DNA from: an uncultured archaeon
Lineage (GTDB): Archaea; Thermoproteota; Nitrososphaeria_A; Caldarchaeales; Wolframiiraptoraceae
NCBI GenBank assembly: GCA_938083505.1
Contig: CALKCF010000002.1
Coordinates: forward strand, 32,001 to 96,000
DNA: 64,000 bases
Direction: 5' to 3'
How positions within the stretch are numbered: the first letter of the stretch is position 1; every line of letters starts with the position of its first letter. The notes beneath the pieces are model-generated. The model did no database searches. It worked only from the letters and a program-made list of their open reading frames with translations, and was not told the origin of the DNA. The translations under genes were made by a program, and so were the position numbers. Below, in pieces: positions 14,331 to 45,744 of this stretch.

Positions 14331-14368
14331 AAACCCTTAATTTGAACTCATGTGTCTCCGAAAGAATG

Positions 14369-25814: not shown

Positions 25815-26579
25815 ATGATCGTGACAGAAAATGTCCGTAAACTTCTTAAAGCCCACGAAGGGCTAAAACGTGAAGTTTACTTAGATATTGAGAACTCAAG
25901 CTTCGTTCTCCCAGAAGTGATTGAAGCTATGCTTCCATACTTTAACAAACGTGCTTATGTCAACCCTACGCTTACTCATAAACCGGGATGGGAAGCTTAC
26001 GACGCTATAATGGAGTCAGCCCAAACAATTGCAAGGTATTTTGGCTGTAAAAGTATCGAAGAGATCAACTTTACGCCAGGAGAGGCTGAGGCTAACAACC
26101 TTGCCTTGCTTGGTGCAGTCTCTCAAATGTGTGTAAAACGCGGAAAAATCGTGATTTCTGAGATTGAACCGTTAAGCATCATGCACGTAGCGGAAATACT
26201 TTCCAAACAAGGATTTTCAATGATTAAAGTGTCCGTGGATGGTGAGGGTTTTATAGACCTTGAAAAACTTAAAGAGGCTGTAGACGATGAAATAGTTATC
26301 GCGAGCTTCTCCGCTGTTAACTGTGAAGGTGAGGCATTAACCATTGAGTTAAGCTTGAACAGTGTGTACGTTTCAAGCGGAAGCGCTTGCACAAGACACT
26401 TATTGCAACCAAGCCATGTGTTAGTCGCCATAGGTAGAAAATTTGAGGAAGCTCACGGCAGCATCCTCATGAAAGCTACACGTATACGCACAGAGGCGGA
26501 TATAGACTATGTATTTGAAGTTTTGTCAAAGGTCGTTGAAAGACTTAGAGGAATAACGGGCTCAATGGTGGCCGAGTAG
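25815..26579 (+). pseudogene. iscS: IscS/NifS-type cysteine desulfurase with a large in-frame internal deletion
   Basis: N-terminal VYLD..S, NP and FTPGEAEANN are joined at SAVN|CEGEAL (about 26321) directly to C-terminal SSGSACT...SHVL. The PLP-Lys (SxHK) segment is absent. Confidence 0.8.
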
Positions 26580-26581
26580 TC

Positions 26582-27043
26582 TTGTCGCGCTTCCCCCTAC
26601 CCTACACTCAAAAAATCTTGGATCTGTTTAGGAATCCAAAGAATTTAGGGAAAATGAAGGACGCCACTGTTTCAGCGGTAGCCGGCAACCCTCAATGCGG
26701 AGATATGATAACTTTCTATTTGAAGATCAACGAGCAAGACGTGAGTGAAAAGTCGACATTTGAAAGAACTGAAAAAATTAATCAGATGAAGCTTGAAGAT
26801 GCTTGGAAAATTTTGTGGAAGAGCATTGTCGAAGAGTTGGGAGGGCTGCCGGCTGTCAAATTTCACTATGGCATATTGGCTGTTGGAGCTTTGAGACGGG
26901 CTATTCGCGCTTCCTACAAAATGCGGCAACAAATTCCAGAGTGGCTACCGAAAGAATTAACCTTTGAAGAAAAACAAGCATTAGAAGAGGAGCTGGCAAA
27001 AATCCTTTCGAAGAGAATGAAGATGGTAGAAGAAGGTGCTTGA
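26582..27043 (+). pseudogene. iscU: IscU/NifU scaffold, degenerate (in-frame deletion, two of three Cys lost)
   Basis: FRNPKNLG and GNPQCGD present. The GC-x-x-x-x-A segment is missing after KSTFE, and KFHY replaces KxHC. Confidence 0.75.
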
Positions 27044-28284
27044 AGATGTTCAATCCCTACAAGGTTAGGGAAGACTTCCCTATATTGAAACGAAAGATAG
27101 ACGGTAATCAGATCATATACTTTGACAATGCGGCAACATCCCAAAAGCCAAGGCAGGTCATCGAAGCGATGAAAAAGTTCTACGAAGAACAAAATGCCAA
27201 CGTTCACCGCGCAGTGCATACATTATCACTGGAAGCTACGGAACTTTATGAGGAGGCCCACGAGGAGGTTGCTGAATTCATAGGCGCCAAGAGTATGGAA
27301 GAAATAATCTTTGTAAGGGGCACAACGGAGGCCATAAACCTCGTTGCCTATTCGTGGGGGCTTCACAACCTTAAACGGGGAGACGAGGTTCTCGTAACTC
27401 TCATGGAGCATCATAGCAACATAGTTCCATGGGAGATTCTCTCAGAAATAAAAGGATTTAAAGTTAAGTATTTAGATGTTAACCTGGATGGTACATTAAA
27501 CTATGAATTGTTAAAGGAAATGTTAACACCTAGAGTAAGGCTTGTCTGCGTAACCCATGTTTCGAACGTGACGGGCGTCATTAATGATGTGGAAACTGTT
27601 GCGAAACTCGCCCATGAAAATGACGCTTTAGTTCTTGTGGATGGTGCCCAATCAGTACCCCACATACCCGTAAATGTCCAAAAGTTGGACTGTGACTTCT
27701 TGGCTTTCTCCGGTCACAAGATGCTTGGGCCAACGGGGATAGGCGTCTTGTATGGTAAACGGGAAATTCTTGAAAAAATGAAGCCCTTTCATGGCGGTGG
27801 CGGAATGATTAATGAAGTTTCCTTTAACCTAGAGATGCATAGATGCAAAATCTCATGGAACGAACTACCATGGAGGTTTGAGGCTGGAACCCCGGACATA
27901 GGTGGGGCTGTTGGCTTAACGGCCGCCATAAAGTATTTGAGGACTCTTGGAATGGAAAACGTGAAGACCCACGAATACAAATTAACCGAATACACCATGA
28001 AACACTTGAAGGAATGCCCAAAAGTCACGGTTTACGGTCCTAAAGATGCTGCGCTAAAATGTGGGATAATACCATTCAATGTTGAAAGATTAGATTCTCA
28101 TGATGTAGCCTTACTTTTAAACAGTTATGGAATAATGATAAGGAGCGGGTTCCACTGCGCCCAGCCTCTTCACGAAAAGCTTAAAATTCCCTCATCCGCA
28201 AGAGTCAGCTTTTACGTTTATAATACTCAAGAAGAAGTGGACCGCTTTATCGAAGCCTTAAAGGAGATAGAAGGGGTTTTATGA
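27040..28284 (+). CDS. sufS: Cysteine desulfurase, SufS (class II)
   Basis: YFDNAATSQKP, MEHHSN, DGAQS, FSGHKMLGPTG, FEAGTP and RSGFHCAQP. Confidence 0.95.
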   Translation: MKMFNPYKVREDFPILKRKIDGNQIIYFDNAATSQKPRQVIEAMKKFYEEQNANVHRAVHTLSLEATELYEEAHEEVAEFIGAKSMEEIIFVRGTTEAINLVAYSWGLHNLKRGDEVLVTLMEHHSNIVPWEILSEIKGFKVKYLDVNLDGTLNYELLKEMLTPRVRLVCVTHVSNVTGVINDVETVAKLAHENDALVLVDGAQSVPHIPVNVQKLDCDFLAFSGHKMLGPTGIGVLYGKREILEKMKPFHGGGGMINEVSFNLEMHRCKISWNELPWRFEAGTPDIGGAVGLTAAIKYLRTLGMENVKTHEYKLTEYTMKHLKECPKVTVYGPKDAALKCGIIPFNVERLDSHDVALLLNSYGIMIRSGFHCAQPLHEKLKIPSSARVSFYVYNTQEEVDRFIEALKEIEGVL

Positions 28285-29660: not shown

Positions 29661-30036
29661 TCAACCACGGTACAGTTCACATGTTTCCGGTAACGTGATG
29701 AACCGTTTATGTATATCACATACCACATCTTCTCTCCTTAAAATTTTGCATACTTCGCAAAATTTCAGCATAGCTTCAACTGATGAAAGGTTATGTGCCA
29801 CTATGCCTGCTGCAATTTGATCGGCCAGGGAACGGACGGGGTCTATGGACTCTAACTGTTTTAGTATTTTCACCCCTCTTTGTAAAGATATTAACTTATT
29901 GCCGTTTGGGTTATTCCTATTTTTTTGTTATAGTTACTTGTGAGAAAATGTATTTTTTATTAAATTAATTCTTGGCTATTAGAGACCTGAACCCGGGAAG
30001 TATTAGCTTTACAACGGCCTTGCAAGGTGCTCTCAA
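29661..30036 (-). pseudogene. COG2522-like HTH transcriptional regulator, decayed
   Basis: Fragments LRAPCKAVVKLILPGFRSLIAK, SQV...GITQTAIS*YL..KRG, and the C-terminal C-x-x-C...CDIH ORF (29661..29873). Confidence 0.65.
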
Positions 30037-30165
30037 TATGGATAACTCTAAAATCTTTATCTATATAAAGTGCAACAGATAAACTCATTTCCTTGTTTTT
30101 AGAAGTGTGGGTAACTCAACAAGTTGTGCACTTACACTTATATTCTAAAGTTTATAACGAAAACA

Positions 30166-30396
30166 TTAACACCTCATAACGAAAACACGCCAGTTTTCGT
30201 TATCGTCCGTTTCAACTTTAATAACTTTAACATTCAATTCCCTTGCAGCCTTAATTATATCATCTCTTGATGGTTTATGTGTTCCCTTCACCACTAATAT
30301 CTCTCCGTGTTCAAGGTTATCTACACTTCTCCTAAACTTTATCAGAGGTACAGGACAGATATCGCCGGATGTATCTAAAATTTTGTACTTCTCCAT
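30166..30396 (-). CDS. tusA: TusA/SirA-family sulfur carrier
   Basis: 76 aa with LDTSGDICPVP (CPxP) motif. Confidence 0.9.
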   Translation of the reverse strand: MEKYKILDTSGDICPVPLIKFRRSVDNLEHGEILVVKGTHKPSRDDIIKAARELNVKVIKVETDDNENWRVFVMRC

Positions 30397-30398
30397 AA

Positions 30399-31562
30399 TT
30401 AATTGCCCTCCTTATGGCTGAAATTCGAGCATTTTACAGCCTTCATTAAAGTTTCGACTAACATTACCTTTCCTGTTCTTAGGTTCAACACATGCTTTTC
30501 TCTTTCCTCCTGCGCTTTTGCTTTAAGCTCTTCAAATTCTTTGTAATGTTCTTTAAATTCCACACCTGTGATACCTCTTAAGTGCCTCCGCAAAAACTCT
30601 CCATAATTTTCGCATGAGTCAGGGATGATAGTAACAACCACTCCTCTTCTTCCTTCATTGTTTAATCTTTCAGCAATTTTTAGGGCTCCAAAAAAATTGG
30701 TACCGCTCGAAATCCCTGCAGGGATGTCCGCGTTCCAAAGCGCTAACATTGCGTTATATGCATCTTTATCGGTGACCTCCATTATCTCATCACATACTGT
30801 TTTTGCTTCTTTGAAAAAATTTGATGCACCTAGCTCGTCTTTACTCCTAAGTCCAAGCTGATGGTGACCCTCTTCAGGAATAAGCCCTACAAATCTTATA
30901 CCTTCTACGTTTTGTCTCAGCCAATTTGCGCACCCAATCATGGTTCCGCACGTTCCAAGAGCAATAACGAAATGTGTCATTTCTCCAGCAGTTTGATGAT
31001 ATATTTCTGGTGCTGTTGTTAAAAAGTGAGATAGCGGATTGCCAATGTCGTCATATTGGTCGAAATTGATCACCTCGGGGTCTATTTTTTCTACATACCT
31101 GGCCGCTGCTATGGCTTCGCCCCTTTTAGCTGCTACTGTAGGGCAGTATTTGTCAGAGAACGTTTCGATTTTTGTCTTATTCTTAATCAATTTCGTAATT
31201 AGCCATTCATTTTCTTTAACAGTATTTTCGGACATGTAAACTGTGAAATCAAACTTCTCCATCAAAAGAAAAGAACCAGCTAGTCCAAAATTTCCGGAAG
31301 TTGCTGTAACAACTTTTCTTTTCCCATCTAATTTCCCTTCATGTAATTTTAGGTAATACATTGTGGCAAAAGGTCTGGCCTTTACTGATTCCCCAAAATT
31401 CGTATACTCCAACTTTGCATATATGGGAACTTCTTTGTCGAATGGGTTTATAGTTCGGGGTATGCGTATAAGTGGAGTAAATCCTATTCCTAACTCTTTT
31501 AACCAGGAATAAAAATGACGGAGGGTGAACTTTTTACTAACTGTTAGGATTTCGTTCAGCAT
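30399..31562 (-). CDS. PLP-dependent cysteine synthase-family enzyme (CysK/CysM-like, divergent)
   Basis: G-x-TPL, YAKLEYTN..SVK (PLP Lys), ATSGNFG, QY..N..H, GTCGT, GISSG, IIPD. Confidence 0.88.
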   Translation of the reverse strand: MLNEILTVSKKFTLRHFYSWLKELGIGFTPLIRIPRTINPFDKEVPIYAKLEYTNFGESVKARPFATMYYLKLHEGKLDGKRKVVTATSGNFGLAGSFLLMEKFDFTVYMSENTVKENEWLITKLIKNKTKIETFSDKYCPTVAAKRGEAIAAARYVEKIDPEVINFDQYDDIGNPLSHFLTTAPEIYHQTAGEMTHFVIALGTCGTMIGCANWLRQNVEGIRFVGLIPEEGHHQLGLRSKDELGASNFFKEAKTVCDEIMEVTDKDAYNAMLALWNADIPAGISSGTNFFGALKIAERLNNEGRRGVVVTIIPDSCENYGEFLRRHLRGITGVEFKEHYKEFEELKAKAQEEREKHVLNLRTGKVMLVETLMKAVKCSNFSHKEGN

Positions 31563-31578
31563 GGTATCATCCCTACTG

Positions 31579-32082
31579 TTAGTCTTTCTGAGGAGGACAA
31601 GTTTCGTTTAGATCCGTGTTTAACATATAATCTGTTGGGATTTGTCTGCAGAATCTCAGAATCATGTTAGCTACAATCATGGATTTTGAAGCGAACCTTG
31701 GCCTGCGATACACCATACTAAGAGGTTCTACTTTGAGCTGGCGGTTCAAAAAAGCGGCGGTTTCACTAAGCTTTTCTAAAAAGATCTCTTTAATAACAGA
31801 GTAACTGCTACTTATAGTAAAGTCGATTTTTTCAGCGGGTGGTTCTGTTAGGATTTTAAAATTTTTCACAACACCTTTGTCCAGTTGAATGAAGAGCGTT
31901 ATTTTTTCGCTGGAGTATAGCTCTCGCAATTTTGGAGGAATGTCTGTAATAACGTATGCAAGATTTAAACTGTAGCCGGAGGTGAGTCTATTAAATTCCT
32001 CGTCTTTGGTTCTGGCACCTTGAACAACTCTGACCGCTTCACGAACCCACTCTGGGGAAAGGAACAACAATTTTTCAGACAT
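31579..32082 (-). CDS. SCP2 (sterol carrier protein 2)-like domain protein
   Basis: FLSPEWV start and DFTISSSY...AAFLNRQLKV pattern of SCP2 folds. Start placed at ATG 32082. Confidence 0.65.
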   Translation of the reverse strand: MSEKLLFLSPEWVREAVRVVQGARTKDEEFNRLTSGYSLNLAYVITDIPPKLRELYSSEKITLFIQLDKGVVKNFKILTEPPAEKIDFTISSSYSVIKEIFLEKLSETAAFLNRQLKVEPLSMVYRRPRFASKSMIVANMILRFCRQIPTDYMLNTDLNETCPPQKD

Positions 32083-32098
32083 TGTTTTATTTCCCTCA

Positions 32099-32524
32099 CT
32101 AAACGTAGATAATTGTAGCATCTTTGGCGTCTTCTGTTAAGAACGAAGCTAGCCCGCGCACTCCATCTGTATTATCAGTTAACTCATCCATTGTTAAGTT
32201 GTGAAATGCCATGGCGGCGGGACAAGCGTATATCTTCCCTCCCAAACTGCGAAGAAGTTTTAGCTGCTCTGAGATTTTTGGTAGACCGTTTTTTCTCCTT
32301 CTTTTATGAATTTCCTTTCTTATTGACTCATCTGTTTCCTCTCCCACTTCATCCTCAAACCCCTTCCTCAATCTTAGAATCCCTCCGTAACTGAACAGCA
32401 CATAGACCGTTTCTCCAAGCGCAGAAGAAACTGTTGCAAGGTTTAAAGCAGATACCACTCGCTCATAGGACGCGGTGTTTATGATTAAAGCTTTTTTCTG
32501 GATTCTTGTCTGATGGTTGGACAT
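32099..32524 (-). CDS. DsrE/DsrE2-like sulfur-relay protein
   Basis: ALNLATVSSALG..V.VLFSY, KIYACPAAM with the conserved Cys, GLASFL. Confidence 0.85.
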   Translation of the reverse strand: MSNHQTRIQKKALIINTASYERVVSALNLATVSSALGETVYVLFSYGGILRLRKGFEDEVGEETDESIRKEIHKRRRKNGLPKISEQLKLLRSLGGKIYACPAAMAFHNLTMDELTDNTDGVRGLASFLTEDAKDATIIYV

Positions 32525-33051
32525 TAGGCTAAAACCCTTGCTTTTAAGCCTCGCTTTTCTCTTTCAGCATCTTTTATTCTTTCTGCCCATTCAAGAAGAG
32601 GAATGTCTTCTTTGCGTATTCTTTCAAGATTTTCTGCTAACTCGTTAAGCTCTTTTTGAGTTAATTTTTCAGCAAAAAGGACGATACCCTCACATTCAAT
32701 GGGATGGGAAAGGATATCGCTCCTGATTATGTCCGGCAATATTTTAGCTTGTTCCTCCGAAATTTTTCCCTTACTTAAGATTTCTACAAGCTCCCTTCCT
32801 CTTTTTACTATTCGATCATGTACACCAAGCAAGTATTCTAAGTACTGTCTTCCAAAGAACTTCTCAAATGTTAAATAGAGACTTTCTTCCTCCCATCTAA
32901 AGTGTGGGCCTCCTATTTTATCTAGACGAATCATTATTTCCAGCGCTTTTGTCGCGTCTTTCTTGCTTACTGCGTCTATTAGTTCCAAAAGCATGTCTCT
33001 GACCTTTGCGTGATCACTTCTAAATTCAGCTATGGGATCTAATTTTGGCAT
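32524..33051 (-). CDS. Hemerythrin/HHE cation-binding domain protein
   Basis: DH, HFRWEEESLY, H and HPIECE ligand pattern. ATG at 33051 behind a GGAGGTG RBS. Confidence 0.8.
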   Translation of the reverse strand: MPKLDPIAEFRSDHAKVRDMLLELIDAVSKKDATKALEIMIRLDKIGGPHFRWEEESLYLTFEKFFGRQYLEYLLGVHDRIVKRGRELVEILSKGKISEEQAKILPDIIRSDILSHPIECEGIVLFAEKLTQKELNELAENLERIRKEDIPLLEWAERIKDAEREKRGLKARVLA

Positions 33052-33796
33052 TTTAAACACCACCTCCTTTTCTTTAGGTGTAATTATAACAGCGTTATAG
33101 ATAAATTTTTCGGTCATTAGATGTTGCATAAGGGTTGCAACACGTCAAGTAAAAGCACACATATCTCCAGAAGAAGAATCTCAATACGTTTAGGAAACAG
33201 TATAGAGATCATCAAGTTATCTATGGTGTTTTTTATTTCTTTATTTTACAAACTTGATACCTCATTCCTTGCAAAAGCTTATGCTCCTTTCGAGTTCCTG
33301 GTTTTGTTTTTAGTTTTTCTACTGTTTGGTGTATTTCGTTGGTAGGTCAACTATCATAAAACTTAATTTCCTGATTATTTCGTCTTTTGCAAAATTGTTT
33401 CCAATTTTGGGCATAAAAAATAAATTAAGGCATCATTCAAGAATTTATCGCCCAAGAAACAAGCCATAGTATTTGCCTCAGGAGCAATTGGCCTTTATGA
33501 TTTCCTCTTGATTTGCTTAATCTACGCCATAATATATCTGGAAACTTGGATTGGAGCTTTAGTAAGCATAATAACAGCCGAAAATATCCTCTTCACACTA
33601 TTTTTTAGCACAAAACTCGGGGGATCTTCCCAAGGCTAGAAAATCATTGTATGTTTCACATAGTTCCAACACCTAAAAACTCAAGAAAATACCATCCGAG
33701 GTGTTCTTAAAGTTGTATTTTCTTTATCGTCTTATCTTTTGGACGGAAAACGAGTAATGTAACACTTCATGGAATGGTTCCGGAACTAGGGGGTAT

Positions 33797-33873
33797 TGGA
33801 GCCTCGGGCGGGATTTGAACCCGCGATCGCCGGCTTACCAAGCCGGCGCCCCACCCGGCTAGGCTACCGAGGC
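33797..33873 (-). tRNA. tRNA-Thr(GGT), CCA encoded
   Basis: Acceptor GCCTCGG/CCGAGGC, anticodon arm CCGGC-TT-GGT-AA-GCCGG, T-loop TTCAAAT, then T-CCA. Confidence 0.97.
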
Positions 33874-33960
33874 CGAATAATTGATACAAACGAAAATTAT
33901 TAGCTTTACCGTTAAGTTGCAAAAATAATTTATAAATGCGCTGAAGTAAAAGCTCAACTA

Positions 33961-34088
33961 GGGGGCGTGGCCCAGAGGAGGAAGTCTCCGGGGAGCAAGG
34001 TCTACGGCGCCGGGCTCCAGATCCACTCATGTAGTGGGTTAAGGGTGTAGAAACCCGGAGACCGCCGGTTCGAATCCGGCCGCCCCCA
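33961..34088 (+). tRNA. tRNA-Trp(CCA) with two introns (20 nt at 15/16 and 32 nt at 37/38)
   Basis: Removing 33976-33995 and 34021-34052 yields a complete cloverleaf: GGGGGCG/CGCCCCC, GCC/GGC, CCGGG-CT-CCA-GA-CCCGG, GCCGG-TTCGAAT-CCGGC, A73. Confidence 0.88.
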
Positions 34089-34171
34089 CATAACCAGATT
34101 AGTTCAGCGTCATTAGAAATTTTTCTGGATGCTGTGCTGAAGTAATTCAAGAGGGGGCGTGGTTGCCACGC

Positions 34172-35008
34172 TTATGAAGGTTGTAGAACCAACCTCATAG
34201 CGACTATTAGGAGCGTAAGGCCCAGAAGCCTCTTGATCTTCGCGTCGCCTACACGGCTGGAAATGCGCGCACCCACCTGAGCACCCAGCATGCCACCTAG
34301 GCCTAGGAAAATGGCATAATCGAATAGGATGTTGTTCAGCGTGGAATGGGTAATGGAGCCGAACAGCGTTGTGAATACGAGTATAAAATGAGATGTGGCG
34401 GTTGCGATGTGTACGGGCATGCCTAGTATGTGTATCATAATAGGAACATGTAGCACGCCACCGCCGATTCCGAAGATGCTGGATGCCAAGCCAGCGAAGA
34501 AGCTTGTTATAAGCCCTAAGGGTACGTTAACTGAATACTCGTAGACTTTACCGTCGGAATCGACAAACCTCCTTTCGTATCCTCCAGCCTTCACGTTGCT
34601 AGACTGCTTCGTATGTTTGAGCAAAAGATAAAGCGATGTCCAAACCAAAAGGGCCGCAAAGATTGCCTTAAACATGAAGGACCCAAGGTGACCTGCAAGG
34701 TATGCACCCGCGATCGCGCCCGGAATCGTAGGAATCACGAGTATGAGTCCAAGCCTGACATCAGCCCTCCTCAGCCTCAAGTACGAAACGCTTCCGGACA
34801 GAGTGTTTAAGAAAACGAAAAACAAGCTAGTTCCAGCCGCCACCTTAGGCTCAAAGCCATATAGCAATATGAGAGCTGGAACAAGATACGCCCCACCACC
34901 TATCCCTATTAACGTCCCCAATCCGCCTATTCCAAAACCGAGGGCTGTTAATGCCAGCTCCTCATACCATAACATTATCAAACACCCAAAATTTCGCTCA
35001 TGTAACAT
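34172..35008 (-). CDS. TauE/SafE-family sulfur-compound exporter (TSUP)
   Basis: Duplicated GIGGG...VP motifs, AAGTSL and ATATSH, about 8 TM helices. Confidence 0.9.
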   Translation of the reverse strand: MLHERNFGCLIMLWYEELALTALGFGIGGLGTLIGIGGGAYLVPALILLYGFEPKVAAGTSLFFVFLNTLSGSVSYLRLRRADVRLGLILVIPTIPGAIAGAYLAGHLGSFMFKAIFAALLVWTSLYLLLKHTKQSSNVKAGGYERRFVDSDGKVYEYSVNVPLGLITSFFAGLASSIFGIGGGVLHVPIMIHILGMPVHIATATSHFILVFTTLFGSITHSTLNNILFDYAIFLGLGGMLGAQVGARISSRVGDAKIKRLLGLTLLIVAMRLVLQPS

Positions 35009-35231
35009 GTGGAAGAAAGAATTCGTCTTTCTTTATTCAATAACGACCGCCTGTCATTTACGGCAAATTTTCTCGAATGATTTAAATATATCTTTAAACG
35101 CGGGGTAAAAAAAATTGATTATTAAGACGAAAAGTAAACGAATGTATGCGACCTTAGATGCCTCTTCAAAGATGTCCATAAACTTTAAAAACAAGATGTC
35201 GGTGTAGTTTTCAATACGACGGTGGGTTAAT

Positions 35232-35372
35232 ATGATATATCCAGGCATATTATCAGTTGAGGAAGAGGAGGAATTCGAAGAAGAATTTGAGGAAGAGTTT
35301 GAAGAAGAATTTGAGGAGGAGTTTGAGGAGGAAGAAGAGTTCGAAGAGGAAGAGCTTGAAGAAGAATTTTAA
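35232..35372 (+). CDS. 46-aa polyglutamate micropeptide with (EEEF)n repeats
   Basis: ATG preceded by GGTGG and a TTTAAAAA box near 35184. Repeat units vary only at synonymous positions (GAA/GAG, TTT/TTC) in this frame. T-rich tract follows. Confidence 0.7.
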   Translation: MIYPGILSVEEEEEFEEEFEEEFEEEFEEEFEEEEEFEEEELEEEF

Positions 35373-35388
35373 CGCTTGGGGTAATAAC

Positions 35389-35970
35389 TTAATTTCTTCC
35401 ACTAACTTTTTTATTTATGTGCTTTTTCCTAAACTCAACAACACTTATTTCCTCGAAAAACAGACTAACGGATTTGAGAGTTTTGTGATCGAGTTCTAGT
35501 TTTGAGGCTACATCCCATAACCTTTTCAGATCGGAAACGCTTGAAATTACCAGTAAGATTTTGCCAGAACATGAAAGCATGCGACATGCTTGCTGCAAAA
35601 ACTTGAGTGAGATATCTACACCATGCTCACCACCAAATATTGAAACGTCCCTTAAACACTCGTCAGGGAGGTACGGTGGGTTAAAAACTATCAGGTCAAA
35701 GCCTGAGCCTTCCCTGAAGGGCGAGAGGAGATCGCAGCAGACCACATCGGTGTTTGCCCTTTTGTTGTATTTATGAAGCCATTCCAGCGTAGCATAGCAT
35801 GAGTTCAAATCTATGTCTGTAGATACTAAGTATTCGGACTTTTGCGTCAACGCTACGGAAACTAGGCCGCTACCAGAACCTACCTCCACCGCCTTTCTGA
35901 CATAAGGCATATCCTTAACGGTATCGATTAATAAGAAGGTATCCTCTGAAGGCTGGTATACCCCGTTCAT
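35389..35970 (-). CDS. HemK2/Mtq2-family release-factor glutamine methyltransferase
   Basis: VYQPSEDTFLL, EVGSGSG and FNPPYLP. Start at ATG 35970 overlapping the asnS stop. Confidence 0.9.
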   Translation of the reverse strand: MNGVYQPSEDTFLLIDTVKDMPYVRKAVEVGSGSGLVSVALTQKSEYLVSTDIDLNSCYATLEWLHKYNKRANTDVVCCDLLSPFREGSGFDLIVFNPPYLPDECLRDVSIFGGEHGVDISLKFLQQACRMLSCSGKILLVISSVSDLKRLWDVASKLELDHKTLKSVSLFFEEISVVEFRKKHINKKVSGRN

Positions 35971-37271
35971 GGATAAACCCTTGCGGGCGTCCTCGGAAAT
36001 AGCGTGACGCTCCTGATATGTGTCATGCCAAGCAGCCACCAAAGCATCCTTTCCAAGCCGAGACCGAAGCCGCTATGTGGTACCGATCCATACTTCCTTA
36101 AATCTAGGTACCACTCATAGTCTGAAGGGTTAAGGCCAGCCTCCTTGATTCGCTGGACGAGTAGCTCGTAATCGTGAATCCTTTGACCTCCGCCAACTAT
36201 CTCACCATAACCTCCAGGTGCCAGAAGGTCAGCACTGAGCGTAACCCTTGGGTCCGATGGGTCGGGCATGTGGTAGAAAGCCTTTGTCTCTTTGGGGTAA
36301 TGAGTGACGAAAAATGGCTTATCGAATTCCTTGGAAAGCTCCCTCTCCTCGTCGGCTCCAAGATCTTGCCCCCATTCTATGTTGAAACCTTTGTTTTTCA
36401 GAATCTCTAACACCTCGGCATACTTTATTCTAGGGTAGGGAGGTTCTGCGATCGAAGGGTCTATACTCTTCCCCAAAATCTTGAGGCATGGTTCAGCAGA
36501 CTCCGCCAATGCCTTGATGGTTTCGCCGACGAGCTTTTCAACAATCACCATCATGTCCTCCAGCGTAGCGTTGGCCATCTCAGCCTCAACGTGCCAAAAC
36601 TCGGTTAGATGTCTCCTAGTTCTGCTGAGTTCAGCCCTGAAGCTAGGCTGTATCGTGTAAACCTTCTCTAACCCGAATATCGCTGCCTCTTGATAGAATT
36701 GAACACTCTGGGTCAAGTAAACGTTCTTGCCGAAGTAGTCTACCTTAAACAGCGTAGCACCACCCTCGACGGCGGCCGTTATGAACGTAGGACAATGGAC
36801 CTCAGTAAACCCATTCTTCCTAAACCATTCGTGAAGAAGACCGGTCAGTAATGCACGTATCTTCATTATAGCGGCGACCTTAGGGCTCCTAATGTGCAGG
36901 TGTCTGTTGTCCAGCAGGAACTTAATGCTGGCGCCGGGCTTTATGGGGAATTCAGCTAATGATTTACCTATGACCTTAAACGACCTACATTGGATTTCCG
37001 TTCCACCTGGCGCCCTCGGGTCCTTTTTTACGAGGCCCGTTACTATAACTGAGGATTCCCTTGTAACGTCTAAGGCTTCCGTAAAGTCTGTTTCATCAGT
37101 AAGCCCCCGCTTCACCGTAACCTGGATTGTTCCTGTGGAGTCTCTAAGCTCCAGAAAAACCAATCCTCCATGCATTCTTTTGTTCCTGACCCAGCCAAAT
37201 ACTTCGACTTCCTCGTTCTCCGGCACCCTAAATGCTTCAGTAATGTGCAACCTTCTGGCCAATTTGGGCAC
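35967..37271 (-). CDS. asnS: Asparaginyl-tRNA synthetase
   Basis: OB-fold GWV, YLTQSVQ, FRAE.SRTRRHLTEFW, GEIVGGGQR, YGSVPHSGFGLGLER. Confidence 0.92.
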   Translation of the reverse strand: MPKLARRLHITEAFRVPENEEVEVFGWVRNKRMHGGLVFLELRDSTGTIQVTVKRGLTDETDFTEALDVTRESSVIVTGLVKKDPRAPGGTEIQCRSFKVIGKSLAEFPIKPGASIKFLLDNRHLHIRSPKVAAIMKIRALLTGLLHEWFRKNGFTEVHCPTFITAAVEGGATLFKVDYFGKNVYLTQSVQFYQEAAIFGLEKVYTIQPSFRAELSRTRRHLTEFWHVEAEMANATLEDMMVIVEKLVGETIKALAESAEPCLKILGKSIDPSIAEPPYPRIKYAEVLEILKNKGFNIEWGQDLGADEERELSKEFDKPFFVTHYPKETKAFYHMPDPSDPRVTLSADLLAPGGYGEIVGGGQRIHDYELLVQRIKEAGLNPSDYEWYLDLRKYGSVPHSGFGLGLERMLWWLLGMTHIRSVTLFPRTPARVYP

Positions 37272-37317
37272 CCACCCCTAAAAGTTTAGGGCACGTTTTG
37301 AATGTTTCCAATAAAGC

Positions 37318-37713
37318 TTATAATACTTGGGACCCTTCCCTTACATCCCTTTCAGGGATTATCGGCGCTATGACATTTTCTGACTCAGCAGCCGCCAATA
37401 TCATACATTCGGATATCTCACCTCTAACAGTCTTCGGCTTGAGGTTCACCAAGAACACGAATTTCTTACCGATAAAGTGCTCTGGTTCATATATGTGGCC
37501 AAGGCCAGTTATCGCCTTTTTCTTGAAGAAGCCAAAGTTGACAAGCATCTTTATGAGTCTGTCAGTTCCGGTAACCCTTTCTGCATACTCGACTAGACCC
37601 ACCCTAATGTCGAACCTCTTAAACTCCGACATTTCAACCTGCGACAATTGACTTCGAACTTGTAGATTCCTAAATCGTTTAAAAAGATTACTTAGCAATG
37701 CCAACTTCAGCAC
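37318..37713 (-). CDS. Stand-alone tRNA-binding OB-fold protein (Trbp111/CsaA/MetRS C-terminal-like)
   Basis: FKRFDIRVG, LVNLKPK.VRG..SECMILAA, GSQV. The true start is probably downstream of 37713. Confidence 0.85.
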   Translation of the reverse strand: MLKLALLSNLFKRFRNLQVRSQLSQVEMSEFKRFDIRVGLVEYAERVTGTDRLIKMLVNFGFFKKKAITGLGHIYEPEHFIGKKFVFLVNLKPKTVRGEISECMILAAAESENVIAPIIPERDVREGSQVL

Positions 37714-37794
37714 TCCACTTCATTAATTTCAATTGTTATAAAAATTCGAAAAATTTTTATAACAATAAATTTGTATAAAATATAGTGAATAAAC

Positions 37795-37899
37795 ATGCCA
37801 AAGAAAAAGGCAAAGAAGACAAGTGCAAAAAAGAAGAAACGTACAAAAAAGGCCAAGGAGGAAGAAAAAGCACCAGAAACCCCTGCTGAAGCGGGATAA
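37795..37899 (+). CDS. 34-aa Lys-rich basic micropeptide MPKKKAKKTSAKKKKRTKKAKEEEKAPETPAEAG
   Basis: ATG downstream of TTTTATAA/TATAAAA boxes, fills an intergenic gap, T-rich terminator-like tract near 37955-37972. Confidence 0.6.
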   Translation: MPKKKAKKTSAKKKKRTKKAKEEEKAPETPAEAG

Positions 37900-37983
37900 C
37901 CTACTACAAAGCATTCCAAGTACTAAACCGTTGAAGCCATCTCCTGATAATTTTACCTTCTTTTATTTTTTGTAAACTGACCT

Positions 37984-38496
37984 TCAAACGACTATCGTCT
38001 CTTTGCGTGTTAAGAATATTGATGATAAAAAACCAAAAACGCCCGAGAATGCTAAGACAATTAGATATGGTATCACAAGGTTAAGCGGATGGGGCAGTAT
38101 AAAGTTTTCTATGAATGCATTCACCTTAACTAACCAGAATTGATGACCGTATACCTCTGCAAAAACTAAGCCCGTCAAACTAAGCCATGAGAGGATAACA
38201 GACGAAGGTATGAGTAACGATAGTTTTAAGGAGGCAGAGAACTTTCCGGCTACCAATCCAGCGAGTGCGGATGCGGCTGCCCACACTATGACGCACGTTA
38301 GACCCTCACTACTGCCCATAAAACCCGTGAATAGGGGTGCCAAAAGCGCCGTATATGCCTGAAGCAACACTGAGAGCACTAAAAGTTGGAAATTCACAGG
38401 TTCTGGCCATGAGGGGCTATGACCAGTAAATAAGGCGACGGAAGTTAAGGTAAGCATCGCCATACCGATTATGAAACTGGCAATCAGCCTAACCAT
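37984..38496 (-). CDS. Hypothetical integral membrane protein
   Basis: 170 aa with 4-5 hydrophobic helices. Confidence 0.65.
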   Translation of the reverse strand: MVRLIASFIIGMAMLTLTSVALFTGHSPSWPEPVNFQLLVLSVLLQAYTALLAPLFTGFMGSSEGLTCVIVWAAASALAGLVAGKFSASLKLSLLIPSSVILSWLSLTGLVFAEVYGHQFWLVKVNAFIENFILPHPLNLVIPYLIVLAFSGVFGFLSSIFLTRKETIVV

Positions 38497-38635
38497 ACTG
38501 TTTAACTTATGAGCTAGCTTATCATAAACCTTCCCTTAAAAGCGTATACAGTAAATTGTACGCCGGTAGTCGTCCGTATTATTTGGGCAATATTGAGCAA
38601 TATTTTTATAGCGAGCGTTTTGTGCTAAACATAGT

Positions 38636-38863
38636 ATGCAGACAGCTTACATATTGCTGACAATAGAGCCTGGACATGAGGAGGAGACGTTAGCCGAGCT
38701 AAAACAGATAACCAATGTAAAAGAGGCTTACAGGGTGTACGGAGTTTACGATATAGTAGTTAGAGTAGAGGCCGAGGACCATGAGAAGCTTAGGATGATG
38801 ATATCCAAGATAAGGCACATTCAAAGGATCAGGTCGACTACTACGCTTATAGTGTGGGAGTAG
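38636..38863 (+). CDS. Stand-alone Lrp/AsnC ligand-binding (RAM) domain protein
   Basis: AYILL..EPG, VYGVYDIVVRVE, IRSTTTLI; no HTH. Confidence 0.9.
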   Translation: MQTAYILLTIEPGHEEETLAELKQITNVKEAYRVYGVYDIVVRVEAEDHEKLRMMISKIRHIQRIRSTTTLIVWE

Positions 38864-39049
38864 TCTGCTAACCTCTCCTCAATCATAACATACTCAATAT
38901 CCGGAAGTCACATCTCTTGTCCCTTAAACCCGTGATGCTGGGAGCCCTCCATACCTCGGTTTCACCCGATAGTCCGAGGAGGAATGCGACCGTTGTACTG
39001 TATCGAGGGGTCTGATTAAAAGTTATTAAAGCACTATTAGCTGATTAAA

Positions 39050-40576
39050 TTGATGAAATTTGAAGTAATTTCGACGAATTTAGAAGGTGTAAGGGTTGAT
39101 TCTCTCATTATTCAATTCTTTGAGGGTGCTGAGGTTCCAGAAGCTGTGGTTACGCTACCCGAGAGTATCAAAGAGGAGATAGAGCCCTCGATTGGGACAG
39201 GCGGCTTCAAGGCCAAGCTCGGTCAGGTGCTTCCAGTGTATCCAAAATCTGCGGACGCCATCCGCTGCTTTCTGCTATTAGGCCTGGGAAGTAGGAAAGA
39301 TTTCAGCCTAGAGGCTGTAAGGCAGGCTCACGGTTATGCGGCCATAAGAGCCAAGGAGATAGGCAGTAAGAGCATAACGGTGCCCATATTCAGCATACCT
39401 CCCTACACCGCTCCCGAGATAACTGCCAGCGTTGTCGAGGCAATAAACCTGGCTTTTTACAGGTTTGACAGGTACAAGTCAAAGGTCGAGGATGGTAAAT
39501 ATCCGGAGCTTGTCAGACTCGTGGCAGATCCGGACGTAAGGAATATGTGTGATGCAGCGGCCAATGAGGCCGCCATAGTCTCGGAGGCCGTAAAGCTTGC
39601 GAGGGACTTAACCAACATGCCAAGTAGTGATATACCGCCAAAAAAGATGGCGGAGATAGCGACCGAGGTCGGAATGGTAAGCGGTTTCTCTACAAAGGTC
39701 TTAGAGGCAGAGGTGCTTGAAAGAATGGGAATGGGAGGCATAGTGAACGTCGGGAAAGGTAGCTCCAACCCGCCGGTCTTGATAATCATGAAGTACGACG
39801 GTGGCGGCGATACTTATGTGGTCGTAGGGAAAGGTGTGGTGTTCGATAGCGGAGGTATATCCCTAAAGCCGTCGGAGAAGATGGAGGAGATGAAGTATGA
39901 CAAAGCGGGCGCAGCCGCAGTCATCGCACTCATGAAGGCGGTAGCGGAACTTAAGCTTCCCGTAAGGCTAATAGGTATAGTGCCCGCCGTCGAAAACCTG
40001 CCAAGTAGCAACGCACTTAAGCCCGGCGATATAATAAGATTCAGAAACGGAAAGACTGCGGAGATTATAAGCACGGATGCGGAGGGTAGGTTGATACTTG
40101 CGGACGCTCTTGCCTACGCATCCGAGATGCGACCAAAGGTCATAGTAGACTTGGCAACACTGACCGGTGCCTGCGTTATAGCCCTCGGAACGCATGCAAG
40201 TGGCTTATTCAGCAACAACGACGAGCTAGCTGAGGCGCTTATAAAGGCAGGAGAAAAGACTGGAGAGAGACTTTGGAGACTTCCGCTCTGGAAGGATTAC
40301 TTCGAGCAGATAAAGAGCGATGTGGCTGATATGAAGAACGTCGGCGGTAGAGCCGCAGGCGCGATAACCGCGGCAGCCTTCCTGATGAACTTTGTAGAGG
40401 GGAACATACCTTGGGCCCATATAGACATAGCTGGGACTGCATGGACCCAAGAATCGTCGCCAGAGAAGAGCTACATACCGAAAGGTGCTACAGGCGTTGG
40501 TGTTAGATTACTCGTCGAATTCCTGAAGTCGGAGATTAAACGAGTTAAGCCTTACCCATCGGATGCCAACACTTAA
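39050..40576 (+). CDS. pepA: Leucyl aminopeptidase (M17)
   Basis: VGKGVVFDSGG, MKYDKAG, STDAEGRL, DLATLTGA, WAHIDIAG. Confidence 0.95.
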   Translation: MMKFEVISTNLEGVRVDSLIIQFFEGAEVPEAVVTLPESIKEEIEPSIGTGGFKAKLGQVLPVYPKSADAIRCFLLLGLGSRKDFSLEAVRQAHGYAAIRAKEIGSKSITVPIFSIPPYTAPEITASVVEAINLAFYRFDRYKSKVEDGKYPELVRLVADPDVRNMCDAAANEAAIVSEAVKLARDLTNMPSSDIPPKKMAEIATEVGMVSGFSTKVLEAEVLERMGMGGIVNVGKGSSNPPVLIIMKYDGGGDTYVVVGKGVVFDSGGISLKPSEKMEEMKYDKAGAAAVIALMKAVAELKLPVRLIGIVPAVENLPSSNALKPGDIIRFRNGKTAEIISTDAEGRLILADALAYASEMRPKVIVDLATLTGACVIALGTHASGLFSNNDELAEALIKAGEKTGERLWRLPLWKDYFEQIKSDVADMKNVGGRAAGAITAAAFLMNFVEGNIPWAHIDIAGTAWTQESSPEKSYIPKGATGVGVRLLVEFLKSEIKRVKPYPSDANT

Positions 40577-40636
40577 ATTATGCTGGAGACCTGAGAATTT
40601 TTGCCTAATAAAAGGCGTGTTTAGTCGTCTGGACCT

Positions 40637-43402
40637 GTGTTTGTAGGTGGACTGAGGTTGCATAGGGTCGCGGTCATAGATTACGATTTCTGTCAGCCAA
40701 CCAAGTGCGGCCAGCCCTGCATATCATTCTGCCCGCCCGTGAGGAATAAGATAGAGGCCATCAAGCTCGGTGAGAAGGGATTTCCAGTAATTAACGAAGT
40801 GCTGTGTATTGGGTGCGGTATATGCCTCGACCCGAACACACCAGTGGTAACAGAGGCTGGTTTGAAGCCCATTAGAGAGGTTAAGGTAGGCGACAAAGTA
40901 CTCACACATAAAGGAAGGTTTAGGACTGTTCTCTCAAAAAGCGTCAGGCTGTATACCGGCCCCCTCTACAGAATAGAGGTACATGGTATACCGGACCCGA
41001 TACTGCTAACCGAGGATCATCCTTTACTCGTCGCTTCAAAGAACCAAGAAGCGGATGATTTTACGTTTGCCTGGAAAACCCCGCCCGAACTGAAAGAAGG
41101 CGATTACCTTTGTGCTCCAATAGTTACAAACGAAGGTTGTTTAGGGCAGCAAGAACAGCTCACTATCACTACCTCAGGAGTGCTAGCCCAATCGTTATCC
41201 TTTGAATTGACGTTCAAGCTCGGTATAATATTCGGTTATTACCTTGCCAGGGGGTCTGTAGAGCGTGAAAAAGTCGTATTTAGATTCGAAAGGGAGGGTA
41301 TGGTTAAAAAGGCAGAGGAGCTTCTAGAGAAATGCTTCGGTGTGAAAGTCATCCAGAAAGGCCCCAGATCGTTCTTTGTAAACTCGGAGCCTTTAGCCAA
41401 TCTGTTCCGCAACATTCTCGGAGGCTCGGAAGATTCTAAGAGGATACCAATGAGCTTCCTATCCGCATCCTTAGACTTCTTAAAAGGTTTCATCTTAGGA
41501 TTCATAGAGGCTGGGGATAATCGTACGAGTCCTTACATTTCCATGAATAATGCATACATCTTAAAGTTGATGGGAGCAAGGCTTAGCTTACCGTTATCAA
41601 TAAAAAAGGTCGCAAATGCTTATGCAATCTCACTCAGCGATAGGGGGAATGTATCATCAGGAGGTTACCAACTAAACATAATAAACTCAGTGAAGGTTGA
41701 GTTTGTGAAAGATTACCTAGTAATAAACTTAGAAGTCGAAGATGACGAGACATACAACGCCGTAGGGCTTATAGTTCATAACTGTGTTAAGAAGTGCCCG
41801 TTTGAAGCGATCACGATAGTTAACCTGAGCGAAGAGCTTGGTAGGGACATGGTGCACCAATACGGTGTGAATTCGTTCAGGCTTTACAGGCTTCCATACT
41901 TGGAGAAGGAAAAAGTCATCGGTATAATCGGAAAGAACGGCATAGGTAAGACCACAGCGTTGCAGATACTTGCGGGCCGTATTGTCCCGAACTTAGGCAA
42001 GTTATGCGAGGAGAAATCCCTACATGATGTTGCCAGAATGTTCAGGGGCTCACTTATACAAGATTATTTGACGAAGCTCGCCAGCGGTGATGTAAAAATT
42101 TCATACAAGCCGCAATACATCGACACGATACCAAAAGTCGTTAAAGGTAAAGTTGGCGCAATTTTGTTAAAGATTGGTCCCGAAGAGCGTGTTAACAAGC
42201 TAATAGACATGCTGGAGCTCCGCAACCTATTGGATAGGGATGTTTCTGTACTTAGCGGCGGTGAGCTCCAACGCCTTGCGATAGCGGCTTGCCTTGCAAG
42301 GGATGCTAATGCGTTCATACTAGACGAGCCGACCAGCTTCCTTGATATAAAGCAAAGGTTTAGGATAGCTTCAGTAATCAGGGAGCGCGCGCGGGAGGGC
42401 ATGGCCCTCGTATCTGACCATGACCTCGCGGTTCTTGACTATATATCGGATAAGGTTTTCGTGTTTTACGGCGAGCCAGGGGTATACGGCATCGTCGCAG
42501 GCCCTTATGGTGTTAGGGAGGGCATAAATATATTCATAGAAGGATACATACCTGACGAGAATGTAAGGTTTAGGAGTGAAAGGATATTGTTCCAGCTGAG
42601 GCCTCCAACGGAGGCTTATGAAGAGGGTTACTTAAGGCTCTACTGGCCGAGCATGACAAAAACCTATGATGTCTTTAGGCTGGAGGTCGAAGAGGGCTAT
42701 GCATATCCTGGCGAGGTGATCGGTATAGTGGGTCCAAACGGTATAGGTAAAACAACCTTCATAAAAATATTGGCGGGCATCGAGAAGGCTGATGCGGAGT
42801 TTCAGTTACCTTATAGGACGATAAGTTACAAGCCACAGTATCCAGAGATAAAGGACGAGAAAGTTGAAGTCGTTCTTAAAGAAGCTGCTGGAAGCAAGTT
42901 CAATACCGACCTTTACCAATCAGAGCTGATTAGAGCATTGGGTCTACATAAGATACTTGAAAGGAATGTTAGAGAGCTGAGTGGTGGCGAGCTCCAGAAG
43001 GTTGCAATAGCTGAGGCCCTTTCAAAGGATGCTGAAATTTACCTGATAGACGAACCGAGCGCGTACCTGGACGTCGAAGAAAGGTATACAGTCGCAAAGT
43101 TGCTGAAGAGGATAACACGCGAAAGGCAGGCCCATACATTCCTCGTTGAGCATGACCTTATGGTATTAGACTTTGCATCAAGCAGATTGATGGTTTTCTC
43201 GGGCGAGCCGGGTATCAGCGGACATGCCAGCAAACCCATGGACCTTAGGTCAGGGTTCAACGCTTTTCTAAAAGATATGGGTGTCACATTCAGGAGGGAC
43301 CAACAGACGTTCAGGCCGAGAGCGAACAAGCCCGATTCTAGATTGGACAAACAACAAAAAGCGATCGGTGAGTATTACTATCCAGTACCGACCTCGGAGT
43401 AA
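40637..43402 (+). CDS. rli: Ribosome recycling ABC ATPase ABCE1/Rli1, intein-containing precursor
   Basis: N-terminal Cys-rich 2x[4Fe-4S] domain, two ABC domains (GKNGIGKTT, LSGGELQ, GPNGIGKTT), C-terminal TFRRD...RANK...GEYYY. Start may be TTG 40658. Confidence 0.96.
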   Translation: MFVGGLRLHRVAVIDYDFCQPTKCGQPCISFCPPVRNKIEAIKLGEKGFPVINEVLCIGCGICLDPNTPVVTEAGLKPIREVKVGDKVLTHKGRFRTVLSKSVRLYTGPLYRIEVHGIPDPILLTEDHPLLVASKNQEADDFTFAWKTPPELKEGDYLCAPIVTNEGCLGQQEQLTITTSGVLAQSLSFELTFKLGIIFGYYLARGSVEREKVVFRFEREGMVKKAEELLEKCFGVKVIQKGPRSFFVNSEPLANLFRNILGGSEDSKRIPMSFLSASLDFLKGFILGFIEAGDNRTSPYISMNNAYILKLMGARLSLPLSIKKVANAYAISLSDRGNVSSGGYQLNIINSVKVEFVKDYLVINLEVEDDETYNAVGLIVHNCVKKCPFEAITIVNLSEELGRDMVHQYGVNSFRLYRLPYLEKEKVIGIIGKNGIGKTTALQILAGRIVPNLGKLCEEKSLHDVARMFRGSLIQDYLTKLASGDVKISYKPQYIDTIPKVVKGKVGAILLKIGPEERVNKLIDMLELRNLLDRDVSVLSGGELQRLAIAACLARDANAFILDEPTSFLDIKQRFRIASVIRERAREGMALVSDHDLAVLDYISDKVFVFYGEPGVYGIVAGPYGVREGINIFIEGYIPDENVRFRSERILFQLRPPTEAYEEGYLRLYWPSMTKTYDVFRLEVEEGYAYPGEVIGIVGPNGIGKTTFIKILAGIEKADAEFQLPYRTISYKPQYPEIKDEKVEVVLKEAAGSKFNTDLYQSELIRALGLHKILERNVRELSGGELQKVAIAEALSKDAEIYLIDEPSAYLDVEERYTVAKLLKRITRERQAHTFLVEHDLMVLDFASSRLMVFSGEPGISGHASKPMDLRSGFNAFLKDMGVTFRRDQQTFRPRANKPDSRLDKQQKAIGEYYYPVPTSE
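40823..41782 (+). mobile_element. Intein (320 aa) with a degenerate LAGLIDADG endonuclease domain
   Basis: Block A CLDPNT, block B TEDHPLL, blocks F/G VINLEVEDDETYNAVGLIVHN|C. Excision restores CIGCGICVKKCPF. Confidence 0.96.
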
Positions 43403-43451
43403 TTATTTTAGGATAGGAAAAATTAAATATTTTTAAGTTTAGAGCCAGAGC

Positions 43452-45744
<2,293 letters not shown>

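Follow-up and report, generated by a model that had tools for sequence, protein, structure and literature searches.

CysM-type cysteine synthases take bulky or anionic sulfur donors, and in Mycobacterium tuberculosis the donor is a protein thiocarboxylate. A second form of protein-bound sulfur transfer, preferentially from DsrE3 to TusA, has been shown experimentally in other systems (PMC11094781, PMC4175335). The locus described here resembles both the CysO-CysM pathway and the DsrE3-TusA relays, and is a member of neither. It is an operon of five genes, coding for hemerythrin-like, DsrE-like and SCP2-like proteins, a CysK/CysM-like enzyme dependent on pyridoxal phosphate (PLP) and TusA, in a 64-kb stretch of DNA (hereafter the window; G000:C2:32001-96000) from the 1.15-Mb, 98.5% complete genome (G000) of Candidatus Terraquivivens (Caldarchaeales), a genus of hot-spring thermophiles (PMC9246946). 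The operon is a fusion of two independently conserved modules, namely the PLP enzyme with TusA and the hemerythrin-DsrE pair with or without SCP2. An earlier note on this DNA had envisaged a single system delivering protein-channelled sulfur to a PLP β-replacement enzyme; such delivery is still the best-supported reading of the locus, but the system is not indivisible, as the two modules combine variously.

The PLP enzyme and its TusA neighbor

A search of 5.8 billion proteins with the PLP enzyme recovered 42 relatives at E ≤ 1e-64, below which there is a gap until the ordinary cysteine synthases appear at E 1e-28. The named members of this family come from Bathyarchaeia, Thorarchaeota, 'Aenigmatarchaeota' and MSBL1, and in a maximum-likelihood tree the family forms one clade with 100% support in the Shimodaira-Hasegawa-like approximate likelihood ratio test (SH-aLRT), set off by a long branch from CysK, CysM and enzymes of the cystathionine β-synthase (CBS) type. 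The protein is a member of the CysK/CysM superfamily (fold-type II, PF00291), with CBS and O-acetylserine sulfhydrylase (OASS) as the best Foldseek matches and a catalytic set that is invariant in 27 sequences, comprising K61 (in SVKAR), S89/N91 (TSGNFG), G203-T204-C205 (GTCGT) and S285. Its AlphaFold2 (AF2) model has a predicted local distance difference test score (pLDDT) of 91.3, and the nearest entry in the PDB is a CysM (E 1e-28, ~30% identity). At the level of equivalogs it falls outside both described types, scoring 148.5 bits against a cut-off of 394 for CysM (TIGR01138/NF008735) and 121 bits against 351 for CysK (TIGR01139); the scores of ~150 bits with the cysKM/cysM models of NCBIfam are likewise well under the cut-offs of 344-394. 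Several invariant residues are specific to the family, namely F92, C140-P141 in an inserted loop, C205, H233/Q235/R239, the last of these within a HHQLGLRS motif, and R354/H357 in a helical C-terminal extension of ~65 amino acids (aa). The extra YCP loop and the extension, both pointed out in the earlier note, are thus real and conserved, with C140 invariant in all 27 sequences. R239 falls in the GIRR motif of CysM, which carries the CysM-specific active-site arginine.

The most distinctive contextual feature of this clade is its association with TusA. In a scan of all fetched loci, with family loci counted where they had enough flank, a TusA gene was located no more than 500 nt from the gene of the PLP enzyme in 15 of the 17 family loci and in 2 of the 111 loci of ordinary CysK or CysM. 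The pairing is kept across members that are 40-90% identical, in three arrangements (TusA downstream, upstream or divergent) and with two subtypes of TusA, and it recurs in Bathyarchaeia, Thorarchaeota and others. Fusions of the two proteins were not found among 52 near-length homologues, all of which contain PF00291 only, save for one CBS-domain protein. The TusA of the operon has the C14-P15-x-P17 motif (CPVP), which is invariant in nine orthologues, and C14 is its putative sulfur-carrying residue. Complex prediction for the PLP enzyme with TusA gave a score of 0.51, as against 0.00 for the best control, with at least 87% of the contacts agreeing between runs and a partner pLDDT of at least 85. 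Of 80 solved complexes 58 reached the mark applied, as did 2 of 110 mismatched pairs; with scores of 0.60 or lower, only 7 of the 80 solved complexes reached it, together with both passing mismatches. The prediction lends weak support to a complex of the two proteins.

The neighborhoods of the pair are predominantly assimilatory. It adjoins sulfite reductase, phosphoadenosine phosphosulfate (PAPS) reductase and ATP sulfurylase in L013 and L019, a NIR_SIR gene in L020 and cysteinyl-tRNA synthetase (CysRS) in L017, while ThiS/ThiF genes occur near it in L013 and L015. Given these neighbors, and the CysO/JAMM/MoeZ genes adjoining the hemerythrin-DsrE-SCP2 trio elsewhere (see below), cysteine is the likely product of the enzyme. 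A thioether or lipophilic product had been suggested earlier; this was dropped as the leading idea, since the informative neighborhoods of the PLP clade are all of sulfate assimilation or cysteine. Two loci from Bathyarchaeia/Thermoproteota (L024:2124-4970 and L025:1943-6728) encode a TusA-linked member of the clade and an ordinary CysK-type enzyme a few kb apart, so that the two are not simply alternatives to each other.

The hemerythrin-DsrE module and the composite operon

A profile scan of species-representative genomes recovered 34 loci of the hemerythrin-like family, with a DsrE gene following that of the hemerythrin in 27 of the 34 and SCP2 present as well in ~11. The hosts span Caldarchaeales, Archaeoglobi, Desulfurococcales, Ignisphaera, 'Methanoperedens', Deltaproteobacteria, Dehalococcoidia, Armatimonadota and Omnitrophota. 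The module is native to Candidatus Terraquivivens: in T. tengchongensis the SCP2 gene is divergent from hemerythrin-DsrE, with the HTH_3 regulator, ThiF and TusA-NifS-IscU coming next, and in T. yellowstonensis (L201) the order is CysK-like-hemerythrin-SCP2-DsrE. The synthases of L201 and of a Bryobacteraceae locus (L222; Table 1) fall in the native Caldarchaeales CysK-like clade, and differ in gene order and host. Together with the operon in the window, these give three gene arrangements in which the module adjoins a cysteine synthase, and the synthases come from two PLP clades.

The hemerythrin-like family is small, with 101 clusters at E ≤ 1e-10 among 1.84 billion representatives. The protein carries the hemerythrin domain (PF01814), with putative ligands H14, H50-x3-E54, H78 and H116-x4-[E/D]121 kept in 42-49 of 51 sequences, and its AF2 model (pLDDT 95.8) is all-helical; the best Foldseek matches are the distant hemerythrin-like structures 3cax and 6q09, with none at E ≤ 0.001. 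Next to the last putative ligand motif is a cysteine, C120 (H116-x3-C120-[E/D]121), present in 47 of 51 family members. It is the best conserved of the protein's special features and suggests sulfur chemistry over sensing such as the redox/O2 control envisaged in the earlier note. A profile search among longer proteins recovered no fusions of this hemerythrin, which is weak evidence. The DsrE-like protein belongs to the DsrE family (PF02635), and its Cys101, in the motif IYACPAAM, is invariant in all 28 homologues that adjoin a hemerythrin gene, marking it as the putative sulfur-carrier cysteine. Neither the operon nor any of the related loci scanned has a second DsrE-type gene, which sets this protein apart from the DsrEFH/TusBCD hetero-hexamers. 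The SCP2 profile (PF02036) matches at 25 bits, against a cut-off of 21.3, over residues 75-132 only of the 180-aa open reading frame (ORF) at 31579-32121, and the family alignments have no conserved cysteine. Its distant homologues (26-32% identity) adjoin alcohol dehydrogenases and no sulfur genes, so the SCP2 fold alone is uninformative on sulfur. Sequence searches against solved structures gave marginal hits for DsrE (2qs7, E 6e-4) and the hemerythrin (DcrH, E 5e-3) and no match for SCP2, and no function is transferable to these three proteins.

An unassigned contig (L247) encodes a FAD_binding_4/FAD-oxidase_C protein (P0203) with this type of SCP2 at its C terminus (55% identity), alongside a HdrD/GlcF-like Fer4/CCG protein; as it is known from a single 4.6-kb contig, the fusion may be an assembly or gene-calling artefact. 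In the Archaeoglobus locus (L228) the COX1-family/cytochrome c genes possibly encode a nitric oxide (NO) reductase, and this neighborhood hints that in some hosts the pair may be connected with stress by nitrogen oxides.

The full five-gene order is confined to the window and three metagenome contigs (L018, L021 and L101), so that the recurrence which the earlier note had made a test of its proposal was indeed found. The PLP enzymes of these loci are 78-90% identical and represent one narrow lineage. In the closest relatives, L018 and L021, the five-gene set is flanked by HdrA/HdrC/HdrB(CCG)/FrhB genes, while there is no Hdr/CCG gene beside the cluster in the 64-kb window.

Integrity, acquisition and native counterparts of the operon

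The five co-oriented genes at 30166-33051 of the window (Table 1), all above the curated Pfam cut-offs, are as tightly packed as previously described, with intergenic distances of -1, 16, 16 and 2 nt. The hemerythrin and DsrE genes overlap at base 32524, the SCP2 gene follows after 16 nt with its start at Met 32082, which matches that of homologues, and the PALP gene is separated by 16 nt from SCP2 and by 2 nt from TusA. The start of the hemerythrin gene at 33051 is correct, with GGAGGTG situated 8 nt upstream of the ATG and orthologues of 175 aa, and the leader stretch before it is a putative promoter of the operon. All five genes proved intact, their lengths equalling those of orthologues, and pairwise ratios of nonsynonymous to synonymous substitution (dN/dS) of 0.05-0.40 relative to two orthologous loci point to purifying selection on each of them.

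Table 1. Elements of the operon in the window and selected loci with the hemerythrin (Hr)-DsrE module (MAG, metagenome-assembled genome)
Element or locus	Position	Strand	Host	Description
Hemerythrin-like	32524-33051	-		175 aa; PF01814, 34.4 bits (cut-off 25.3)
DsrE-like	32099-32524	-		141 aa; PF02635, 36 bits (cut-off 22.7); PF13686, 28.5 bits
SCP2-like	31579-32082	-		167 aa; PF02036, 25 bits
CysK/CysM-like PLP enzyme	30399-31562	-		387 aa; PALP (PF00291), 126 bits
TusA	30166-30396	-		76 aa; PF01206, 60.3 bits (cut-off 28.6)
HTH_3 regulator pseudogene, Cys-rich C-terminal half	29661-30040	-		last 70 codons open
Operon leader	33052-33110	-		ribosome-binding site and A/T-rich TATA-like stretches, read from sequence
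L222			Bryobacteraceae MAG	Hr-DsrE-SCP2-PALP-JAB-ThiS/ThiF/rhodanese (CysO/CysM/Mec/MoeZ-type set)
L226			Omnitrophota MAG	Hr-DsrE-TusA-IscU-NifS; RIC-like DUF1858+hemerythrin gene upstream
L228	3556-9188		Archaeoglobus MAG	Hr-DsrE between COX1/cytochrome c genes and MFS/NarI genes
L247	168-4523		unassigned contig	Hr, DsrE, 38-aa ORF, Fer4/CCG, 76-aa ORF, FAD oxidase-SCP2 fusion

A strain-specific insert, bounded by tRNA-Leu and tRNA-Thr, contains the operon. This follows from its flanks (10000-14472 and 33797-44000 of the window), for which three congeners show synteny at 73-82% nucleotide identity, from the loss of synteny in between, where it extends only to a GT2 gene and a short segment covering the dead regulator discussed below, and from a lower G+C fraction, 0.36-0.40 over most of the insert as against 0.42-0.46 for the contigs. 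The distance from flank to flank is 4.2 kb in one congener and 19.7 kb in the host, and the insert is a patchwork with many pseudogenes. The operon was thus acquired horizontally, by insertion. Positions 30179-33749 share 85% DNA identity with the metagenome contig L018, and since the remaining genes of that contig are 76-77% identical to a congener, the donor lineage was probably a member of the same family. The part of this region at 33130-33749, upstream of the operon and likewise 85% identical, codes in L018 for a 179-aa gene with a weak Peptidase_M50 match; it holds no ORF of at least 100 aa in the window, where the gene is probably degraded.

Several neighbors remarked on earlier could also be placed. 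The dead Cys-rich HTH regulator downstream is real: the ORF at 29661-29873 corresponds to the C-terminal half of an HTH_3 protein of ~126 aa, the N-terminal half of which, extending to ~30040, is broken by two in-frame stops and a frameshift. Intact homologues occur downstream of TusA in L101 and L103, next to the PLP enzyme gene in L017 and alongside the native trio in L202 and L203. Regulators of this kind, small HTH_3 proteins with a C-terminal CxxC...CxxC-type tail, recur beside TusA, DsrE, NifS and PLP modules (window 29661-30040; L101:7521-7901; L202:8101-8448; G000:C2:194195-194521), making this family a candidate sulfur- or metal-sensing regulator. SufS (27040-28284) is indeed nearby, intact and of full length, in the part without synteny that separates the tRNA-Leu flank from the conserved GT2 gene. 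At 25815-27043 are NifS-like (254 aa) and IscU-like (153 aa) ORFs that match only part of their Pfam profiles, the former covering positions 1-149 of the 371 of Aminotran_5. The TauE gene is also nearby (34172-35008) but belongs to the native flank outside the insert; as this flank is syntenic with congeners, its adjacency is probably coincidental and TauE was rejected as a member of the system in the window. The sulfate-assimilation operon of L019 does include a TauE gene.

The acquired genes have counterparts elsewhere in the genome that are no longer functional. The native cysK-type gene (G000:C3:199967-200949), ~72% identical to the intact orthologue in congeners, is a pseudogene with frameshifts and in-frame stops. 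The native locus of the module (L204; G000:C1:92863-96597), with the order SCP2/hemerythrin-DsrE/HTH_3/ThiF/TusA-NifS-IscU, is partly decayed: SCP2, hemerythrin and DsrE are fragmented, NifS retains only residues 20-103 and IscU is in pieces, while the genes for permease, ThiF and CTP synthase on its flanks are intact. With the native cysK and native trio being pseudogenes and the acquired genes intact, the inserted copy looks like a replacement of both. This amounts to a natural experiment: as the native genes are dead and the acquired copies kept, the function appears to be needed. Sulfite reductase, ATP sulfurylase and a true CysE were not found in the 98.5%-complete host genome. A second intact operon (G000:C2:191608-194521) codes for a DsrE-like protein (136 aa), TusA (76 aa), NifS (413 aa), IscU (166 aa) and a Cys-tailed HTH_3 protein (108 aa), and may replace the decayed native NifS-IscU. 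At G000:C8:7713-10133 a ThiF-family E1-like gene comes directly after one for an N-terminally extended PALP paralogue of 452 aa, a pair which may constitute a carrier-protein-dependent synthase of another kind.

A candidate sulfur relay and its relation to known systems

The reading that we favor, though tentatively, is that the acquired cassette makes cysteine from protein-bound sulfane sulfur by a relay from DsrE through TusA to the CysM-like enzyme. The hemerythrin-like protein, with its di-iron-type site and adjacent cysteine, would together with SCP2 and DsrE form an upstream module that captures or activates sulfur from a source such as sulfide, polysulfide, hydrophobic S8 or a cysteine desulfurase. 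The DsrE-like protein would then carry a persulfide on Cys101 and hand the sulfur to Cys14 of TusA, which in turn would dock on its dedicated CysM-like enzyme. There the sulfur would be added to the aminoacrylate derived from O-phosphoserine (OPS) or O-acetylserine, yielding cysteine directly, once sulfide has been reductively released at the PLP enzyme, or via a TusA-S-S-Cys or cysteine-persulfide intermediate, which Cys140 of the enzyme could help to resolve. We infer in this scheme the direction of sulfur flow, the substrate, the hemerythrin chemistry and the SCP2 ligand. A more far-reaching version, which appears rather doubtful, would make of it a new sulfur-assimilation route of thermophilic archaea and some bacteria, in which the di-iron Cys-hemerythrin and an SCP2 holding S8 or polysulfane load DsrE, from which the sulfur passes to TusA, and the CysM-like clade uses the TusA persulfide as its physiological donor, as a persulfide counterpart of the CysO pathway that avoids free H2S.

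Several considerations weigh against such a relay. The complex prediction is weak and was returned without an interface. The count of 15 out of 17 overstates the independence of the PLP enzyme-TusA pairings, because the family loci are related to one another, and the full set represents a single evolutionary event, as it is confined to one narrow lineage. Where a sulfite reductase adjoins the pair free sulfide would be available, and a carrier is not obviously needed; TusA could also have as its partner not the synthase but a neighboring cysteine desulfurase or the Fe-S machinery. The parts given to the hemerythrin and SCP2 are conjecture.

The main rival reading, unlikely in our estimate, is that of an Fe-S supply or repair cassette, in which a RIC/YtfE-like hemerythrin acts as iron donor or protector against NO or O2, persulfide from SufS/NifS reaches scaffolds of the IscU type by way of DsrE and TusA, and an ordinary sulfide-using synthase provides the cysteine on which the desulfurase draws. 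It draws on the company of the hemerythrin-DsrE pair, which adjoins TusA-IscU-NifS in Omnitrophota (L226), with a RIC-like DUF1858+hemerythrin gene upstream, lies in T. tengchongensis as part of the native trio within 2 kb of TusA-NifS-IscU and ThiF, and is lodged in L228 between COX1/cytochrome c and MFS/NarI genes; further, SufS and the NifS-like/IscU-like genes are 2-4 kb from the operon in the window, and the host has the second DsrE-TusA-NifS-IscU-HTH operon. However, it leaves the near-obligate PLP enzyme-TusA pairing unexplained, and in L019, L015 and L020 the two are tightly paired with no desulfurase or scaffold nearby. Moreover, the hemerythrin is devoid of the ScdA_N/DUF1858 domain that defines RIC, and an ordinary synthase would not need the family-specific invariant cysteines and the conserved extension. 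A role in sulfane-sulfur redox or detoxification is improbable, though it could coexist with the relay to cysteine: here the hemerythrin-DsrE-SCP2 set and TusA would handle polysulfide, persulfide or S8, in reduction or oxidation, with disulfide reductases of the Hdr/CCG type, and the synthase would be only a sink for released sulfide. The HdrA/HdrC/HdrB(CCG)/FrhB genes adjoining the five-gene set in L018 and L021, the association of hemerythrin-DsrE with Fer4/CCG and a FAD-linked oxidase fused to the SCP2 type in L247, and the service of DsrE3/TusA relays to sHdr complexes in sulfur oxidizers (PMC11094781) are in its favor. Yet the cluster in the window has no Hdr/CCG gene with it, the SCP2 fusion comes from one 4.6-kb contig, and most of the hemerythrin-DsrE loci examined are free of Hdr neighbors.

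The remaining readings reverse the flow or deny it altogether. TusA of E. coli receives its sulfur from PLP-dependent desulfurases, and by analogy the PLP enzyme might degrade cysteine or a derivative and hand the sulfur to TusA for thiolation of tRNA or cofactors, in line with a weak partial NCBIfam match to the cysteine desulfhydrase Cds1. This is very improbable: fold-type II enzymes release sulfide by β-elimination and form no enzyme persulfides, the neighbors are assimilatory (sulfite reductase, PAPS reductase, ATP sulfurylase) with no thiolation enzymes among them, and the death of the native cysteine synthase in the host argues for a biosynthetic replacement. That the five genes are adjacent by an accident of insertion, with no joint function, is hardly credible, even though the insert is a patchwork with many pseudogenes and the two modules also occur apart; the identical gene order in three other contigs, the repeated occurrence of the modules, in three gene arrangements, next to cysteine synthases from two PLP clades, the operon-like spacing and the purifying selection on all five genes speak against it.

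The sulfur source for cysteine is unsettled in many archaea, many of which, like the present host, are without CysE, sulfate reduction or both. If the relay to cysteine is true, it would be a second case of carrier-protein-dependent cysteine synthesis after CysO-CysM, and the DsrE/TusA relay would then serve amino-acid biosynthesis in addition to energy metabolism and tRNA thiolation. In itself the hemerythrin-DsrE(-SCP2) module is a rare, widely scattered set, and the cysteine by its di-iron-type site hints at new iron-sulfur chemistry. The earlier note knew of no described pathway with this combination, and our literature searches likewise found no description of TusA with a cysteine synthase, CysM or OPS sulfhydrylase, of hemerythrin with DsrE, or of SCP2 with DsrE or TusA.

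Individual components nonetheless have clear parallels. The hemerythrin shares with RIC/YtfE/ScdA the helical bundle of the hemerythrin type and the His/Glu ligand motifs, and some of its loci lie beside Fe-S assembly or NO-related genes; it differs in the missing N-terminal ScdA_N (DUF1858) domain, by which it falls outside RIC, and in its nearly invariant cysteine by the last ligand motif and a conserved C-terminal PLLEW. With CysM (O-acetylserine sulfhydrylase B) of E. coli and Salmonella the PLP enzyme has in common the fold, the PLP-binding residues and the position of R239 within the GIRR motif, whereas the Cys140 loop, the phenylalanine in the Asn loop (TSGNFG), the phosphate-loop cysteine, the ~65-aa helical tail and the near-obligate TusA neighbor are its own. 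The DsrE3-TusA relays, such as DsrE3A/TusA of Metallosphaera cuprina and the sHdr cascade, similarly combine a DsrE-family protein with a single active cysteine and a TusA encoded beside it, and preferential transfer from DsrE to TusA has been demonstrated in them (PMC4175335, PMC11094781). Those relays feed a dissimilatory Hdr-like oxidizing complex with lipoate-binding proteins, while the sink here would be a biosynthetic PLP enzyme, and the DsrE in question is a short form that is always paired with the hemerythrin-like protein.

The CysM-CysO-Mec+ system of M. tuberculosis (with MoeZR) is comparable in that an enzyme of the CysM type obtains sulfur from a small carrier encoded adjacent to it and, as predicted for the present operon, uses no free sulfide. 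Unlike in that system, the carrier is TusA, with a putative cysteine persulfide in place of a ThiS-fold protein with a C-terminal thiocarboxylate, and the PLP enzyme is of a separate clade with the YCP loop and the C-terminal extension; furthermore, ThiS, JAB and ThiF are unmatched in the five genes and their immediate neighbors. The two systems nevertheless meet in L222, where the hemerythrin-DsrE-SCP2 trio is joined to a PALP-JAB-ThiS/ThiF/rhodanese set.

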